From IMG/VR virus record IMGVR_UViG_2675903368_000015: a DNA stretch of 12,331 nt; one strand, written 5' to 3'. The notes under the pieces are model-generated. The model had not been told where the DNA came from. It worked only from the letters and a program-made list of their open reading frames with translations, and ran no database searches. Shown in pieces: positions 1-11,279 of the stretch. The stretch is from a virus (Duplodnaviria > Heunggongvirae > Uroviricota > Caudoviricetes). The position numbers and the translations under genes are program-made. Every line of letters starts with the position of its first letter. Positions within the stretch are counted from its first letter, which is position 1.

Positions 1-276
1 GTGGCTTCTGTTTCTATCAGCTGTCCCTCCTGTTCAGCTACTGACGGGGTGGTGCGTAACGGCAAAAGCACCGCCGGACATCAGCGCTATCTCTGCTCTC
101 ACTGCCGTAAAACATGGCAACTGCAGTTCACTTACACCGCTTCTCAACCCGGTACGCACCAGAAAATCATTGATATGGCCATGAATGGCGTTGGATGCCG
201 GGCAACCGCCCGCATTATGGGCGTTGGCCTCAACACGATTTTCCGCCATTTAAAAAACTCAGGCCGCAGTCGGTAA
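1..276 (+). CDS. insA: IS1 InsA (transposition inhibitor, DNA-binding)
   Basis: 91-aa product [39 protein letters not shown]... with Cys-rich N-terminus and HTH region, ending HLKNSGRSR; GTG start, stop at 274..276. Confidence 0.9.
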
Positions 277-698
277 CCTCGCGCATACAGCCGGGCAGTG
301 ACGTCATCGTCTGCGCGGAAATGGACGAACAGTGGGGATACGTCGGGGCTAAATCGCGCCAGCGCTGGCTGTTTTACGCGTATGACAGGCTCCGGAAGAC
401 GGTTGTTGCGCACGTATTCGGTGAACGCACTCTGGCCACACTGGAGCGTCTTCTAAGCCTGCTGTCGGCCTTTGAGGTCGTGGTATGGATGACGGATGGC
501 TGGCCGCTGTATGAATCCCGCCTGAAGGGAAAGCTGCACGTAATCAGCAAGCGTTACACTCAGCGAATTGAGCGGCATAACCTGAATCTGAGACAACATC
601 TGGCAAGGCTGGGACGGAAGTCACTGTCGTTCTCAAAATCGGTGGAGCTGCATGACAAGGTCATCGGGCATTATCTGAACATAAAACACTATCAGTAA
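195..698 (+). CDS. insB: IS1 insB reading frame; the transposase is made as the InsAB' fusion by -1 frameshifting from insA
   Basis: 167-aa ORF in the -1 frame relative to insA, overlapping its 3' end; sequence ...[28 protein letters not shown]...[15 protein letters not shown] matches IS1 InsB. Confidence 0.85.
252..258 (+). promoter_or_regulatory. IS1 programmed -1 ribosomal frameshift heptamer A-AAA-AAC
   Basis: Sequence ttaaaaaactc; in the insA frame the codons are TTA AAA AAC, so the heptamer at 252..258 sits exactly where the insB frame overlaps. This is the known IS1 recoding signal. Confidence 0.8.
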
Positions 699-798: not shown

Positions 799-1293
799 TC
801 AGAACAGTCCTTTAACTGAACTGGCCACGCTGTTAAGGGATGATGTGACCTTATCTTTGAAGCCGGACAGCATATCACTGAACGATGAGGATTGCAGACG
901 CTCCCGCAAATCCTCATCACAGCGTTCAAGGGTCAGTGAAAATTCTATCTTTTTCGCCTTACCGTAGCGATCAAACTCGGAACGGGTCGTATTCGTTTCA
1001 GTCAGTACATACATGCCGTAAATCTGCCCGACACCATCAATCAGAGGCCAGGGGCGTCCTGTATATGCCTGTGTGGTCAGCAACGAAAGCGACACTTCGC
1101 CACCTGTAATTTCAGGATAAAGCACGCCGGAAAGCACGATGCGATCATCACCTGCGCCGATATACTGCCAGCTTGCTGAACGGTTAACGCGTTCATTTTT
1201 CACATGCCGCCAGCTTTTGTTTTGCTGTAACTGCTGATGCGGCAATGTGCGCAGCTCAAAAACAAACATGCCGTAGATCATCATCATGGCCAT
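799..1293 (-). CDS. U: P2 gpU-like tail protein
   Basis: 164-aa product with ...SWRHVKNERVNRSASWQYIGAGDDRIVLSGVLYPEITGG...TGRPWPLIDGVG... resembling P2 gpU as I recall it; lies directly downstream of the tape measure gene on the same strand, as U does in P2. Confidence 0.75.
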   Translation of the reverse strand: MAMMMIYGMFVFELRTLPHQQLQQNKSWRHVKNERVNRSASWQYIGAGDDRIVLSGVLYPEITGGEVSLSLLTTQAYTGRPWPLIDGVGQIYGMYVLTETNTTRSEFDRYGKAKKIEFSLTLERCDEDLRERLQSSSFSDMLSGFKDKVTSSLNSVASSVKGLF

Positions 1294-6384: not shown

Positions 6385-6541
6385 AGCTTCAGCCCCTTGT
6401 ATCCGTTAAATGATTCAGCAACAATCATCACCCACCACGCGCGTAATCTCACCCCTGCGCTATTCTCCCGCCACGGCGACAACAAAAAGCAGTAACCCCC
6501 TCCGCACGCACATGCGACCATGCCGCACAGGGAGGGAACAG

Positions 6542-7651
6542 ATGACCGACACCACCATGCAATTGCTCAGTCAGGGCACAGACCCCGTGAAAATGCCGGA
6601 TTTTGATATTCTCGCCGAGGGTAAAACGCTGTCCGGCGTGGCAGAACGCCTGATGAGCCTGTCACTGACCGACAACCGGGGATTTGAGGCGGACCAGCTC
6701 ACCATCACGCTGGATGATGCCGATGACCAGTTGCAGCTACCGCCACGGGGCGCGCGTCTGACGGTTCTCATTGGCTGGAAAGGGGAACCGCTGACAGAAA
6801 AAGGCACTTACATTGTTGATGAAATCGCTCACGAAGGACCGCCGGACAGGCTGACTGTTTCAGCCAGAAGCGCAGATTTTCGGGATGAATTTAATGTTAA
6901 ACGTGAGGCGTCCTGGCATGATGTGACCGTTGAACGTGTGGTATCCGCCATCGCTCATCGGTACAGCCTGAAACCGCAAATCAGCGAAATGCTGATGGAT
7001 ATCGAAATCGACCACGCCGACCAGACTGAAGAAAGCGACATGTCCTTCCTTACGCGCATGGCGGAAATGCTGGGCGCAATCACCACGGTAAAAAGCGGTA
7101 ATCTGTTATTCATCATGCCCGGCGGTGGCGTGAACGCACAGGGCCAGCCGTTGCCATCGTTCGCCATCACACGCAGCAGCGGCGATCGCCATCAGTTCCG
7201 CATTGCTGACCGCGAGGCGTATACGGGGGTACGCGCTTACTGGCTTGATCTTAATTACGGGAAAAAGAAAAAAGTCAGCGTGAAACGCCGCAAACCGCCA
7301 AAACCCAAAAAGGAGAAAAGCAGCAGCCGTGAAGGTGATTATATGGAAGGCGCGGAAGGCAATGTGTTTGTGTTACGCAAGACTTATCAGAACGAGCAGG
7401 CAGCAAGACGCGCAGCGGCGGCAAAGTGGCAGCAGCTACAACGCGGAGCCGCATTATTTTCCATCACGCTGGTGCGTGGACGTGCAGAACTCTACCCCGA
7501 AATGCATGGCACGGTAACAGGATTTAAAAGCGAGATTGATAATCAGGACTGGATTATTGCGAAAGCCGAGCACACCATTGATAACAGCGGCTTTACCACA
7601 CAGCTTGAGCTTGAGGCAAAAATCCCGGAATGGATAGCAGAAACAGAGTGA
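6542..7651 (+). CDS. D: P2 gpD-like tail/baseplate protein (phage late control gene D family)
   Basis: 369 aa from the ATG at 6542, which has a GGAGGG RBS 5 nt upstream (the track ORF extends in frame to 6410 without an obvious RBS). Motifs ...LSLTDNRGFEADQLTITLDDADDQLQLP.RGA...GW.GE...DEI.H.G.PD.L...ARSADFR...ESWHD... and a Lys-rich linker before the C-terminal ...LQRG...FSI.L.RGRA.L.PE....GFK..ID.QDW.I...H...NSGFTT.LELE are typical of this family. Confidence 0.8.
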   Translation: MTDTTMQLLSQGTDPVKMPDFDILAEGKTLSGVAERLMSLSLTDNRGFEADQLTITLDDADDQLQLPPRGARLTVLIGWKGEPLTEKGTYIVDEIAHEGPPDRLTVSARSADFRDEFNVKREASWHDVTVERVVSAIAHRYSLKPQISEMLMDIEIDHADQTEESDMSFLTRMAEMLGAITTVKSGNLLFIMPGGGVNAQGQPLPSFAITRSSGDRHQFRIADREAYTGVRAYWLDLNYGKKKKVSVKRRKPPKPKKEKSSSREGDYMEGAEGNVFVLRKTYQNEQAARRAAAAKWQQLQRGAALFSITLVRGRAELYPEMHGTVTGFKSEIDNQDWIIAKAEHTIDNSGFTTQLELEAKIPEWIAETE

Positions 7652-8985: not shown

Positions 8986-9246
8986 ATGTTCCGTTGTCCG
9001 CTTTGTGGCGCATCTGCCCGTATCCGCACAAGTCGTCCGGAAAATGATTCAAACACCGTGCGGCAAAAGTATTACCAGTGTAACAATCTGGAATGCGGCG
9101 TATGCTTCTCAACACTGGAAGCTTTCCATAAATTCACATCGAAACACGCCTCCGGCGTTCACTCTTCAGAAGGTATCCCGTGGCATGAGCTACCAGCTTC
9201 ACACAGGGGAAACAATCAGATGAGTTTGCCTTTACCTCAGAATTAA
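8986..9246 (+). CDS. ogr: Ogr/Delta-family zinc-finger late transcription activator
   Basis: 86-aa product MFRCPLCGASARIRTSRPENDSNTVRQKYYQCNNLECGVCF... with the Cys-X2-Cys ... Cys-X4-Cys pattern and overall similarity to P2 Ogr (MFHCPLC...ARTSR...YHQCQN..C...F...); AAGGGAGG RBS 5 nt upstream. Confidence 0.8.
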   Translation: MFRCPLCGASARIRTSRPENDSNTVRQKYYQCNNLECGVCFSTLEAFHKFTSKHASGVHSSEGIPWHELPASHRGNNQMSLPLPQN

Positions 9247-9436: not shown

Positions 9437-9577
9437 ATGTCGCAAAAATCGCTTACAGCCATCACGTTCTGCGTGACGGTAATCCTCATCATCTGGATGT
9501 TGCACGGTTCGCTGTGCGAAATACGGATGAGTTTCTGGGGAGCGGAGTTTGCGGCGTTCTTACAGTGTAAGCAGTAA
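9437..9577 (+). CDS. Hok/Gef-family type I toxin-like small membrane protein (46 aa), not in the supplied ORF track
   Basis: Hand-translated: MSQKSLTAITFCVTVILIIWMLHGSLCEIRMSFWGAEFAAFLQCKQ. One hydrophobic helix followed by SLCEIR and AAF, as in plasmid R1 Hok (...[27 protein letters not shown]). AAGGAG RBS 8 nt upstream. Confidence 0.6.
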   Translation: MSQKSLTAITFCVTVILIIWMLHGSLCEIRMSFWGAEFAAFLQCKQ

Positions 9578-9749: not shown

Positions 9750-9778
9750 TTGACACTTATCAATAAAAAAAATCTGAT
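9750..9778 (+). promoter_or_regulatory. Weak candidate promoter for the downstream cassette (TTGACA-N17-TCTGAT)
   Basis: Perfect -35 hexamer TTGACA at 9750..9755, but the best -10 at 17-nt spacing (TCTGAT) is poor; AT-rich context with an A8 tract. Confidence 0.2.
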
Positions 9779-9837
9779 AAAATCAAAATGTTTTGTAACA
9801 AATATCAACTCGTATTGATCCAAAGGAGGCGGATTAC

Positions 9838-10170
9838 ATGGCATTAATCAAATGTCCTGAATGCCAGAAAGAGGTGAGCGATTCAGCATTGTATTGCCCT
9901 GCTTGCGGTAAACAAATAAAAAAACTTAAGCGTTCATTTTTTGGAAAGCTCATTAAGTGGATATTTATATTATTTAATATTTTTATGATCTATACGCTTT
10001 TAGTTGGACTGGGAGGCACTAGTGAAATAATAAATAATGCTACATCCGATGCCGAAAAAGCCGGTGCAGTTATTGGTACAGGCTTAGGTTTAATTACCAT
10101 TGGAAGTTTATGGGTTATTGGCGATATCATTATCGGAATTTTAGTATTTCTTACTAAACCAAAAGGATAA
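9838..10170 (+). CDS. Small membrane protein with N-terminal zinc-ribbon (CPEC...CPAC) and two predicted transmembrane helices
   Basis: 110-aa product; N-terminal CPECQKEVSDSALYCPACGK, then two long hydrophobic segments (LIKWIFILFNIFMIYTLLVGLG and AVIGTGLGLITIGSLWVIGDIIIGILVFL); AAAGGAGG RBS 8 nt upstream; AT-rich. Confidence 0.7.
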   Translation: MALIKCPECQKEVSDSALYCPACGKQIKKLKRSFFGKLIKWIFILFNIFMIYTLLVGLGGTSEIINNATSDAEKAGAVIGTGLGLITIGSLWVIGDIIIGILVFLTKPKG

Positions 10171-10174
10171 CAAA

Positions 10175-11068
10175 ATGAAAAATATAATTTTTTCTATAGG
10201 TGCATCATTTATATCAATTAGTGTACTGCCTGTTCACGCAGCAACTGAACATAATAACTTCAATGCAGTACTCCAGTGCCGAGCAATAGAAAATAATAAA
10301 GACAGACTTTCTTGTTACGATAAGTCAATACAACCGACTCGAACGAAAGTTGCTGAAAAATTCGAAAGCAGAGATCAATGCCCTGATGAGAAAGATGATG
10401 ACAGACGTTTATCTTGTTATGATCGTTTTTTTTCTCCAACATTTACTCCATCTGTAAACTCAAAATCTAAAACGGAAAAGCCAGTAACAACAGAGGCTCA
10501 GCAACCAAATCTTTCTGAGATATCTAAATGCCGAGCAGAAAATGATAAAGAAGCCAGACTAAACTGCTACGATAAACTATTCCCACAGGATAAAGCTGTT
10601 CAAGCTGAATCAAAATTAGAGAAAGCCACAGATGTAGGAAAATGGCACACATCCATTACTACATCGCCAATTGATGATTCGAAAAATGTAATTTTATCGT
10701 TAGAAAGTGATGATTATATCAGAACTCCATTTGGAGAAGCGGTTACTCCCACTCTGTTTATAGCTTGCCGAGAAAAGAAAACCGAAGTATTTCTTAGTTG
10801 GGATGTATATTTAGGCCTTGAACAAACCAGCATGCTTTATCGTCTTGATAAACAGAAAGCAGTTGAGCGAAACTGGCTAGTATCTACAGATACAAAGGCT
10901 GTTTTTTATAAAGGTAATGACATTGATTTCATCCGAAAACTAGCCAACTCAAACAAAATGTATACAAAAATAACTCCTTATAATGAGAGCCCTGTAAGTG
11001 CAACTTTCAATTTAAACGGCCTGTCAAACGCGCTAAAACCACTTCAAGCTGCTTGTAACTGGAAATAG
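10175..11068 (+). CDS. Secreted protein with three tandem Cys-pair repeats and a C-terminal domain of unknown function
   Basis: 297-aa product; start is 4 nt after the upstream stop, with an AAAAGGA RBS (operon-like); N-terminal signal peptide MKNIIFSIGASFISISVLPVHA with AXA-type cleavage site and no lipobox; three repeats of C-x9-RL-x-CYD (CRAIENNKDRLSCYD, CPDEKDDDRRLSCYD, CRAENDKEARLNCYD); C-terminal Cys pair (IACREK ... AACNWK). Confidence 0.75.
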   Translation: MKNIIFSIGASFISISVLPVHAATEHNNFNAVLQCRAIENNKDRLSCYDKSIQPTRTKVAEKFESRDQCPDEKDDDRRLSCYDRFFSPTFTPSVNSKSKTEKPVTTEAQQPNLSEISKCRAENDKEARLNCYDKLFPQDKAVQAESKLEKATDVGKWHTSITTSPIDDSKNVILSLESDDYIRTPFGEAVTPTLFIACREKKTEVFLSWDVYLGLEQTSMLYRLDKQKAVERNWLVSTDTKAVFYKGNDIDFIRKLANSNKMYTKITPYNESPVSATFNLNGLSNALKPLQAACNWK

Positions 11069-11095: not shown

Positions 11096-11139
11096 ACAGA
11101 TAACACAAAGCCCGTGAAAACGGGCTTTGTGTTATCTGT
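11096..11139. repeat. Perfect 19-bp inverted repeat (acagataacacaaagcccg / cgggctttgtgttatctgt) with a 6-nt loop; possible bidirectional terminator or protein-binding site
   Basis: Arms at 11096..11114 and 11121..11139 are exact reverse complements; no U tract on either side. Immediately preceded by a second small palindrome GTGGCTtAGCCAC (11079..11091). Confidence 0.5.
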
Positions 11140-11279
11140 AACTCGAAAATGTGGTCACTACGTGGACACGTGCTGATATAAATCCTTTTATATCAATAAA
11201 TTAAATCATCATTTTTTTCATCAACAAGGATTTTCACGTTTGTGTTACCTGTATGAGACGAGAGTTAACCAGACAAGTG

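Follow-up and report, generated by a model that had tools for sequence, protein, structure and literature searches.

Moron and exclusion genes of temperate phages include P2 old, tin and fun, lambda rexAB, P22 sieA and HK97 gp15. Such genes are independently transcribed accessory units of atypical GC content that lie at a prophage edge, show a patchy presence among related phages and specify envelope-located products. The two-gene cassette described here resembles them in all of these respects (its independent transcription being putative and the location of its products predicted), but it has no sequence or fold relationship to them.

Four groups of proteins are closest to the two products. 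The second product (protein 2) shares a C-terminal beta-sandwich, an N-terminal export signal and a C-terminal C-x-W motif with VasI/TagO (e.g., V. cholerae VCA0118). However, VasI/TagO has one C...RLxCYD hairpin and protein 2 has three, and the gene for protein 2 occupies a phage cargo slot together with that of a zinc-ribbon membrane partner and is never beside Tss genes. IalB (PF06776; PDB 3dtd, Bartonella henselae) differs in that it lacks the Cys-hairpin repeats, is not phage-borne and has an undefined function. The first product (protein 1) resembles DrpB, a two-transmembrane (TM) divisome protein of E. coli and multicopy Rcs activator, in size, in predicted N-in/C-in two-helix topology and in end motifs, although DrpB is encoded by a chromosomal core gene and the similarity is only marginally significant. 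Zinc-ribbon proteins with a TM2 domain (PF05154) likewise combine an N-terminal C4 ribbon with a two-helix membrane domain, but their membrane domain and that of protein 1 belong to different families.

Here, we analyze the cassette in a 12,331-nt stretch of DNA (the window) from IMG/VR virus record IMGVR_UViG_2675903368_000015. Our preferred reading, to which we assign a probability of about 0.45, is that the pair is a lysogenic-conversion moron of P2-like phages whose products may form an envelope unit protecting the lysogen against incoming attack.

Gene layout and position within the prophage

The features of the locus are collected in Table 1. The gene 1 stop codon (TAA, 10168-10170) is followed by caaa and then by the gene 2 ATG, leaving a 4-nt gap, and gene 2 has a ribosome-binding site of its own (AAGGA, 7 nt upstream of its ATG). 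GC contents of genes 1 and 2 are 0.342 and 0.364, lower than in the tail genes (0.545), in flk (0.519) and in the flanks (approximately 0.54). A reading made earlier from the sequence alone (the sequence-only reading) had described a tightly linked operon with two ribosome-binding sites and atypical, low GC content, and this description was accurate. Searches retrieved 92 homologs of gene 1 and 69 of gene 2. Compared with the copies in the functional Citrobacter phage PhiSM, dN/dS is 0.20 for gene 1 and 0.10 for gene 2; between genera, synonymous sites are saturated and pN is 0.15-0.31. Both genes are under purifying selection.

Table 1. Features of the locus and of its two products (nucleotide positions refer to the window; residue positions are marked as such)
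Feature	Position	Strand	Remarks
ogr/Delta-like late activator gene	8986-9246	+	Pfam Ogr_Delta, 52.4 bits; last core phage gene 5' of the cargo
hok/gef toxin gene	9437-9577	+	PHROG 251, E 2.5e-23; PGAP annotation
Putative sigma-70 promoter of the cassette	9750-9783	+	consensus match, read from sequence
Conserved element ATGTTTTGTAACAAAT	9788-9803	+	just 3' of the -10; palindrome TTTGTAACAAA at 9792-9802
Gene 1 Shine-Dalgarno, AAGGAGG	9823-9829	+	8 nt 5' of the ATG; read from sequence
Gene 1	9838-10170	+	110 aa; ORF list
Gene 1 product, C4 zinc ribbon	residues 4-26		predicted cytoplasmic; followed by a basic linker
Gene 1 product, TM1	residues ~38-60
Gene 1 product, conserved loop	residues ~61-78		SDAEKAGA; predicted periplasmic
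Gene 1 product, TM2	residues ~79-105		followed by the invariant T106-x-P108 tail
Gene 2	10175-11068	+	297 aa; ORF list
Gene 2 product, signal sequence	residues 1-22		predicted, Sec-type
Gene 2 product, helical-hairpin repeats	residues C35/C47, C69/C81, C119/C131		three, disulfide; followed by a linker
Gene 2 product, IalB/VasI beta-sandwich	residues ~150-297		with C198/C294
Perfect hairpin	11096-11139		19-bp stem; 3' of the gene 2 stop; self-inverted match
Repeat GTGGTCACTACGTGGACAC	11151-11169	+	resembles GTGGACACTGCGTGGACAC at the int-proximal end
attR core TTTTCATCAACAAGGATTTT	11215-11234		codons 2-8 of pdxB; prophage end

The cassette would be transcribed from its own sigma-70 promoter. 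This putative promoter consists of TTGACA (9750-9755) and an extended -10 element, TGATAAAAT (9775-9783), and was missed by a promoter scan because its spacer is 22 nt. The -10 core, C.GATA, is invariant in 10 loci from 8 genera, and in 9 of 10 loci across genera consensus matches occur in the same upstream order, i.e., a GC-rich terminator hairpin, a TTGTCA -35 element and GATAAAAT. The element ATGTTTTGTAACAAAT is near-identical in E. coli, Klebsiella, Raoultella and Enterobacter loci, whereas identity drops to about 67% in the coding DNA, and it is a possible operator or 5' leader candidate. Downstream of gene 2, the hairpin, which a terminator scan missed because it has no T-run, is probably a terminator or part of the attP arm. 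An Rfam scan of the whole window gave no match, and the window thus contains no annotated sok-like or leader RNA.

These signals bear on a possible role of the pair in the phage life cycle (lysis timing, division arrest, or genome delivery or release), with expression during infection rather than in lysogeny. The cassette adjoins the late activator gene ogr on the same strand, its small two-TM product is of a kind typical for holins and antiholins, and IalB-fold proteins occur in the virulent T4-like phages RB16 and KP15 and in Aeromonas phage 65.2. However, a putative terminator separates the cassette from ogr, the putative promoter is of sigma-70 type, the lysis cassette is far away, and the GC content is foreign. 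In addition, many P2-like phages lack the cassette, which argues against a core function. No Ogr-type TGT-N12-ACA box was found upstream of the cassette; this is a weak, uninformative test, since the pattern is also missing from the rest of the window's phage part, other phage promoters included. On balance, we consider a life-cycle role improbable.

The prophage, integrated at the first codons of pdxB, encloses the cassette, which is flanked by ogr/hok and attR. The same 20-mer as at 11215-11234 adjoins int and pdxB in the intact prophage of NZ_OX637961, and homology to K-12 resumes at 11215. The repeats GTGGTCACTACGTGGACAC and GTGGACACTGCGTGGACAC, one near each end of the prophage, agree at 17 of 19 bases and, by analogy with the P2-type attP organization, are probably integrase sites of the arm type. 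In the circular genome of PhiSM, the pair sits between ogr and int. Because the att core is duplicated and the pair occupies this position in PhiSM, we assign the cassette to the cargo of P2-like phages.

The order of genes in P2-like loci is ogr, hok (where present), the ribbon gene, the VasI-like gene and att. The hok gene between ogr and the cassette is confined to the E. coli lineage and is missing from the Klebsiella and Dickeya loci. Within the window, the neighbors of the cassette include Hok and a HEPN-like moron, a possible hint of a role in lysogeny or defense. The host att site at which the pair is found differs in Klebsiella, Dickeya and other E. coli. In a P2-like prophage of E. 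coli HS that lacks the cassette, attB follows ogr after 77 bp; in two further loci (L010 and L018), the slot between ogr and att holds alternative cargo. The cassette therefore shows three features by which a moron is recognized, i.e., a position between the att sites, patchy presence among close relatives and a GC content unlike that of the core genes.

The sequence-only reading had placed the pair between a prophage remnant and flk, as an operon gained independently of the prophage. The GC content of the cassette, sharply unlike that of the phage structural genes, would agree with such an origin. However, the att core lies 3' of the cassette, which places the cassette inside the prophage; the pair occurs in packaged or circular phage genomes and is standard cargo of P2-like phages, including the functional PhiSM, with which it travels to several att sites. 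Independent acquisition is, in our view, hardly tenable.

Predicted products of the two genes

Protein 1 contains the cysteines C6/C9/C20/C23 (CPEC...CPAC) and matches Pfam Zn_Ribbon_1 with 31.2 bits (GA 25) and PHROG 6586 with an E value of 7e-43. Hydrophobic stretches are located at residues ~38-60 and ~79-105, an acidic loop is present, and 9 K/R residues fall within the N-terminal 40 residues. In the AF2 model, the ribbon is joined to two long helices, and columns of the family alignment (A2) are on average 73% identical. The architecture proposed from the sequence, a CxxC...CxxC zinc ribbon followed by two TM helices, is thus supported by the Zn_Ribbon_1 score, hydropathy and the AF2 model. 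A Foldseek search of this model against PDB found nothing more specific than generic zinc knuckles and helical hairpins, none of them below E = 1, and protein 1 has no Pfam TM2 match. Zinc-binding anti-sigma factors (ZAS) were considered as relatives of protein 1, and this reading was dropped because the H-x3-C-x2-C motif is missing; residues 1-40 contain no His, the motif present is CPEC-x10-CPAC, and there is no Pfam zf-HC2 match.

Protein 2 has a single N-terminal hydrophobic segment that ends VHA|A. Its Cys pairs 35/47, 69/81 and 119/131 each occur with RL(S/N)CYD, and the fourth pair is 198/294. The beta-rich domain (residues ~150-297) is modeled by AF2 with pLDDT above 90. Residues 118-296 align to positions 1-184 of Pfam VasI (PF11319) with 89.6 bits (GA 26.5), and the extra Cys repeats match the start of the same model; further matches are to Pfam IalB (E 5e-4) and PHROG 1848 (E 2e-37). 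The C-terminal domain has the IalB fold. A PDB sequence search with the VasI-like profile returned chance-level matches only (E above 0.2). Gene 2 had been described from sequence as encoding a Sec-exported protein with three Cys-pair repeats and a C-terminal domain of approximately 150 aa, in agreement with hydropathy, the Cys pattern and the AF2 model, and a tentative association of RLxCYD with periplasmic or T6SS-associated proteins is borne out by the VasI match and by the PGAP name of protein 2, TagO. Export and topology of both proteins are predicted from hydropathy, charge bias, Cys pattern and the architecture of fusion proteins.

Distribution, pairing and genomic context

The pair was detected in 19 phage records, in 240 of 5426 complete E. 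coli genomes (approximately 4%) and in many genomes of Klebsiella, Enterobacter, Salmonella and plant pathogens; carriers include ST131, ETEC and C. rodentium. In IMG/VR, the ribbon gene is located directly upstream in 67 of 80 VasI-like loci, as counted after removal of short "VasI" matches on the ribbon gene, which are an artifact of the presence of fusion protein P0052 among the queries. A VasI-like gene lies downstream in 30 of 50 full-length viral ribbon loci, and both genes are present in 8 of 11 enterobacterial genome loci. These counts show that the two genes are co-conserved, and the pair is not a housekeeping one. Either gene also occurs singly: about 20 of the 50 viral ribbon loci have no VasI-like gene, and VasI-like genes without the ribbon gene account for 13 of the 80 viral loci and for all 24 non-enterobacterial genomic loci. 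Given these lone copies, the coupling is strong only inside P2-like phages.

Gene fusions link the two products. P0052, encoded at the same phage position, consists of the ribbon, a TM segment and the VasI domain. P0278 consists of the 2TM module, a third TM segment and a VasI domain that matches the C-terminal domain of protein 2 with an E value of 6e-19. In the same slot of another E. coli P2-like prophage, a different, PF05154-type ribbon gene adjoins the gene for a 250-aa VasI-like variant. Phage VasI-like copies carry between one and three Cys-hairpin repeats. The ribbon gene of other prophages is found directly 3' of a CI/LexA-like repressor gene, which may likewise hint at lysogeny or defense. 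A lineage of approximately 92% identity, which includes ETEC plasmid copies, has a frameshifted copy and has lost one Cys; outside active phages, the module is thus not needed.

A comparison with Bartonella IalB ("invasion-associated locus B") raises the possibility that the pair serves the lysogen in host interaction or virulence. Its carriers include the ST131, ETEC and C. rodentium strains named above, and gene 2 has been entered as "virulence" cargo (PMC6456863). However, IalB has no defined biochemical activity, protein 2 is predicted to be periplasmic rather than surface-exposed, and homologs are widespread in marine bacteria and in environmental or plant-associated Enterobacterales. We regard a virulence function as very unlikely.

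The names given to protein 2 raise the possibility that it is a genuine type VI secretion accessory (TagO/VasI) that is phage-borne and modifies or supports the host type VI system. Its Pfam VasI score is above the gathering score, PGAP names it TagO, the Vibrio T6SS has its canonical vasI between vasH and tssA, and ORF1 of PhiSM was classed as a T6SS factor, the gene 2 cargo of this phage being entered as a "T6SS VasI family protein" (PMC6456863). On the other hand, the match to TIGR03360 (75.9 bits) is below the equivalog cut-off of 124.2, and protein 2 is paired with a membrane protein of the phage rather than with a Tss protein. No T6SS genes occur in the window, which holds only phage genes, hok and flk, or in approximately 150 related loci, the P2-like ones having no Tss genes; 24 distant loci have no recurrent neighbors, and the Photobacterium homolog is an orphan adjoining an LprI gene. 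A T6SS context was rejected after neighbor clustering in 35 genomic loci and Pfam analysis of 117 neighbor ORFs, among whose leading families there was no T6SS family. The function of TagO itself is given as "unknown" in a 2026 review (PMC13584744). A role in type VI secretion is accordingly improbable.

Neighbors of distant VasI-like genes include R-M, Druantia, GmrSD, CARF and OLD-type genes rather than T6SS clusters, a possible hint of defense that comes without a random-locus baseline and from promiscuous PADLOC methylase models. In PADLOC-DB v2, neither protein had a match (E <= 0.1), and the same was true of the HEPN-like ORF and Hok. That the pair does not correspond to a described system, as thought initially, agrees with this result. 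A functional study of the pair was not found in the literature, and surveys of P2 defense hotspots do not mention ogr, VasI, TagO or the cargo slot between ogr and att.

Candidate functions of the pair

According to the moron reading, protein 1 would be an inner-membrane protein whose two-helix hairpin is DrpB-like and whose zinc ribbon faces the cytoplasm. Protein 2 would be a Sec-exported periplasmic protein with four disulfides, distributed over three Cys-hairpin repeats and an IalB/VasI beta-sandwich. The two may work together as a single envelope-spanning unit, in which binding or sensing would fall to the periplasmic protein, with the membrane protein as anchor or transducer. We infer that this unit, if expressed in the lysogen, could guard it against attack such as superinfection by a phage or injection by some other contractile device, perhaps by way of Rcs signaling of the DrpB kind. 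The sensor, exclusion or immunity function proposed from sequence is plausible in this light, and we know of no exclusion protein with this fold. Indirect pointers to exclusion are the predicted envelope location, the putative promoter of the cassette and the ribbon-gene homologs directly 3' of CI-like repressor genes.

The likeness of protein 1 to DrpB suggests an envelope-stress module instead. Protein 1 would then be a phage homolog of DrpB (YedR) that, as DrpB does when over-produced, switches on the Rcs phosphorelay for capsule and envelope repair via RcsC, or that acts on the divisome, the VasI-like protein would tune or trigger it, and any protection would be indirect, through capsule, rather than by direct exclusion. 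NCBIfam DrpB (NF038392) is the top and almost sole match of protein 1 (22.1 bits, E 1.4e-4) and also of four among six family members that lack the ribbon (18-24 bits). In hhalign comparisons of the protein 1 family with DrpB, three profiles gave probabilities of 15.8%, 46.6% and 39.5%, all full-length and collinear. DrpB is also the best non-family match among 8609 decoy ORFs (E 0.015). The motifs R-S-x-x-G-K...W-x-F and T-R/K-P-K/R are common to the ends of both proteins, and T89 of DrpB aligns with the near-invariant T106 of protein 1. Substitution of T89 was the only tested one to abolish Rcs activation by DrpB (PMC11709261).

The DrpB scores, however, are far under the 50-bit equivalog cut-off of the model and might be due to the way two-TM hairpins are composed. 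A zinc ribbon and a periplasmic partner are both lacking in DrpB, whose effect on Rcs is known from over-expression only. Moreover, the protein 1 family reaches beyond Enterobacterales, to organisms in which, to our knowledge, Rcs is not present. An Rcs or divisome role is therefore rather unlikely.

A more explicit proposal within the envelope-protection reading is that the VasI-fold protein recognizes or obstructs the tip of a contractile injection machine (a myophage tail, tailocin or T6SS spike) and that the DrpB-like protein relays the event inward, e.g., to RcsC and capsule. In this form the proposal is a long shot.

The current annotation of the pair, as a T6SS component and a "zinc ribbon protein", is misleading; a self-contained phage moron, with fusion support for a two-protein unit, corrects it. 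The pair is widespread, being present in about 4% of complete E. coli genomes and, in the C. rodentium infection model, in one or more inducible phages. Should none of the leads hold, it would be one more uncharacterized accessory pair. As it stands, the pair is a candidate for a new envelope-level function in lysogenic conversion or defense. If either the DrpB/Rcs or the contractile-injection lead is true, it would shed light on the role of TagO/VasI in T6SS loci and on signaling by DrpB-type hairpins. If the sensing of contractile tips is true, this would be the first function for the TagO/VasI family, also inside T6SS clusters, and would reveal a new class of envelope-level immunity common to phages and T6SS loci.

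Position and transcription of the cassette

The window is E. coli chromosomal DNA. Homology to K-12 restarts at 11215 with the reverse complement of the first pdxB codons and the pdxB-flk spacer, and the intact prophage in an ST131 genome has the order pdxB / int-C-cox ... portal-capsid-lysis-tail-D-HEPN-ogr-hok-ZnR-VasI / flk, where ZnR and VasI are genes 1 and 2. In that genome the 20-mer TTTTCATCAACAAGGATTTT is present at each prophage end. Since the window also carries this att core, beyond gene 2, the cassette is the last cargo before attR and lies inside the prophage, rather than between a prophage remnant and flk as the sequence-only reading had placed it.

Features of the window
Feature	Position	Strand	Remarks
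IS1 (InsA/InsB)	1-~768		abuts gpU end
P2-type tail genes gpU, T, E, FII, FI	gpU entry 799-1293	-	
gpD	6410-7651	+	listed ORF 413 aa
AT-rich ORF, 340 aa	7772-8794	-	GC 0.335; between gpD and ogr
ogr	8986-9246		
Hok/Gef-family toxin gene	9437-9577	+	PHROG 251 'MokW-like host killing', E 2.5e-23
Extended -10 TGATAAAAT	9775-9783		
Near-palindrome ATGTTTTGTAACAAAT	9788-9803		directly downstream of -10
Gene 1 (ribbon gene)	9838-10170	+	110 aa
Gene 2 (VasI-like)	10175-11068	+	297 aa
Perfect 19-bp hairpin	11096-11139		after gene 2
att core TTTTCATCAACAAGGATTTT	11215-11234		
flk	from 11336		

An alignment of the 120 nt preceding gene 1 in ten loci from eight genera revealed a conserved order. A GC-rich terminator hairpin and its T-run follow ogr; next come a -35 (TTGTCA) and a -10 (GATAAAAT, of which C..GATA never varies), then the near-palindrome, the RBS and the start codon. 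The window has a -10 of the extended type, with hok inserted upstream. The near-palindrome, which may be an operator for some regulator, is kept almost base for base in E. coli, Klebsiella, Raoultella and Enterobacter cassettes with diverged coding regions. Together, these elements predict that the pair is an independent transcription unit. The promoter layout, the hairpin, the foreign GC content and the fact that certain P2-like phages lack the pair (77 bp separate ogr from attB in E. coli HS) fit the definition of a moron, i.e., accessory phage cargo with its own transcription unit.

Several observations concern the surroundings. The IS1 element borders gpU, any prophage beyond it falls outside the window, and intact versions are known in other strains. 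The att core (11215-11237; 19998-20019 in comparison locus L052) corresponds to pdxB codons 2-8. The lysogen has TTA in place of the pdxB GTG start, and an in-frame TGA immediately precedes it; annotation of the gene therefore begins at Met9 (370 aa vs 378 aa in K-12), and the phage int end replaces its native promoter. The listed gpD start is ~42 codons upstream of that implied by homologues of 371-384 aa, and the true start is probably near 6536. The 340-aa ORF, labeled 'hypothetical' in ST131 and phage 500465-2, had a sub-threshold match to HEPN_RiboL-PSP (E 2.5e-4, 21.4 bits vs GA 28.4) and neither a PADLOC nor a PHROG match; it is a second AT-rich moron and may encode a HEPN-type defence protein. 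Insertion of hok between ogr and the cassette is limited to the E. coli lineage, Klebsiella and Dickeya loci being free of it, and an Rfam scan of the window gave no Sok-type antisense RNA.

Spread and constraint of the gene pair

The same pair is carried by 19 phage records and by 240 of 5426 complete E. coli genomes. It occupies the same post-ogr slot in Klebsiella, Dickeya, Raoultella, Brenneria and Salmonella, at different host att sites. In the circular genome of PhiSM, an inducible P2-like Citrobacter phage, it lies between ogr and int, adjoining attP; gene 2 was noticed earlier as cargo, with PhiSM ORF1 entered, without assay, as a 'T6SS VasI family protein' (Magaziner et al., PMC6456863).

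Homologues of the two genes numbered 69 and 92. Relative to PhiSM, dN/dS was 0.20 for gene 1 and 0.10 for gene 2; between genera, synonymous sites are saturated and pN is just 0.15-0.31. Both are genuine genes, maintained in phages by purifying selection. The copy on ETEC virulence plasmids is decaying: its VasI-like gene is frameshifted and has C47Y, the TM2 motif is lost, and conserved residues are gone from both genes. On plasmid NZ_CP025917 (locus L133, 8232-10248), the ogr-hok-ZnR-VasI fragment has no other phage genes and is near colicin Ia genes; the ~92%-identity matches listed, both chromosomal and plasmid, share its split annotation.

Properties of the two proteins

The features noted in the sequence-only reading were all recovered: a 4-nt intergenic gap, an RBS before each gene, low GC (0.342 and 0.364 vs 0.545 for tail genes and 0.519 for flk), a C4 ribbon and two hydrophobic helices in protein 1, and Cys-pair repeats and a C-terminal domain in protein 2.

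The protein 1 ribbon, CPEC-x10-CPAC, matches Pfam Zn_Ribbon_1 (31.2 bits). At 73% mean column identity, against 42% for protein 2, this protein is far better conserved. An exhaustive profile search found 334 cluster representatives of its family at E <= 1e-10, many of them ribbon-less two-TM proteins of 95-100 aa. Protein 1, and four of six relatives that lack the ribbon, matched the DrpB (YedR) model best, scoring 18-24 bits (cut-off 50); hhalign aligned the family with DrpB collinearly over the full length (40-47% probability), and DrpB was the best non-family match among 8609 decoy ORFs (E 0.015). Remote homology is plausible but unproven. Of the DrpB substitutions tested, only the one at T89 abolished Rcs activation (PMC11709261), and this residue aligns with T106 of protein 1, which is nearly invariant. 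Protein 1 might act like over-produced DrpB, turning on Rcs or divisome functions, with any protection being indirect; we consider this main rival rather unlikely.

Protein 2 starts with a hydrophobic segment for export. Three Cys-pair repeats follow, all carrying RL(S/N)CYD, and each is predicted to fold into a short helical hairpin that its Cys pair closes. The C-terminal domain, ~150 aa, is beta-rich (model pLDDT >90). Phage copies have one to three repeats, giving proteins of ~210, 250 and 297 aa. Together with the pair of C198 (invariant) and C294 (nearly so), the repeat Cys pairs make four disulfides probable. The protein matches Pfam VasI (PF11319) at 89.6 bits (GA 26.5) and is named TagO by PGAP, a family of unassigned function (PMC13584744), but scores only 75.9 bits with the T6SS equivalog model TIGR03360 (cut-off 124.2).

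This family membership is what would suggest a true T6SS accessory role. However, Tss genes occur neither in the window nor in related phage loci, and T6SS families are absent from the leading Pfam families of 117 neighbour ORFs. No neighbour family recurs across 24 non-enterobacterial genomic loci, where T6SS clusters would show their core genes repeatedly. These results argue against gene 2 being a T6SS gene. Neighbours of distant VasI-like genes include GmrSD, an OLD-type AAA_15 ATPase, RecD with TerB, Mrr/ResIII, type I/IIG R-M, DruH and CARF, which may point to variable or defence islands; the Photobacterium homologue is an orphan adjoining an LprI gene.

Coupling and proposed function

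Co-occurrence held up in P2-like phages, though linkage is not universal. A ribbon gene immediately precedes 67 of 80 VasI-like loci in IMG/VR (66 of the 67 with P2 markers), a VasI-like gene directly follows 30 of 50 full-length ribbon loci, and both are present in 8 of 11 enterobacterial genome loci; VasI-like orphans outside Enterobacterales had no ribbon partner. There are also two independent natural fusions: P0052, located like the pair directly after ogr (ribbon, one TM and VasI domain), and P0278 (two-TM module, cytoplasmic linker, third TM and a VasI domain 28% identical to that of protein 2 over 160 aa, E 6e-19). In the fusions, the third TM replaces the signal peptide, which independently supports protein 1 being N-in/loop-out/C-in and protein 2 being periplasmic. 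Synteny and fusions tie both genes together as a phage cargo unit with predicted envelope products, and indicate that they work together within P2-like phages.

A 250-aa VasI-like variant, encoded by a further P2-like prophage of E. coli, adjoins a different zinc-ribbon protein with a TM2 domain, an analogous partner. Elsewhere the ribbon gene is alone, directly follows a CI-like repressor gene (some prophages), or precedes exported Excalibur, SNase or small secreted proteins of no named family; fusions of the two-TM module to OB-fold (tRNA_anti-like) domains also occur. Family members preceding, or fused to, Excalibur, staphylococcal-nuclease and OB-fold domains include L086/L087 (6349-6606), L098 (6330-6779), P0224 and P0253. 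These partners may reflect a nucleic-acid theme in the periplasm.

We propose that the pair is expressed from the prophage and changes or guards the lysogen envelope, in the simplest form excluding superinfecting phages or other contractile injection devices; protein 2 would be the binding part and protein 1 its anchor or transducer. We give this reading a probability of about 0.45. Further rivals, all considered unlikely, are a role in the phage life cycle, the T6SS accessory role and, by analogy with IalB, a virulence role. Gene 2 belongs to a named, functionally blank family. In the literature we found no treatment of the two genes as a unit, and none of the cassette promoter, the fusion proteins, the setting outside T6SS clusters or the link to DrpB. 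The pair is widespread, and testing it would be cheap; we class it as a phage-borne, partner-coupled form of VasI/TagO.
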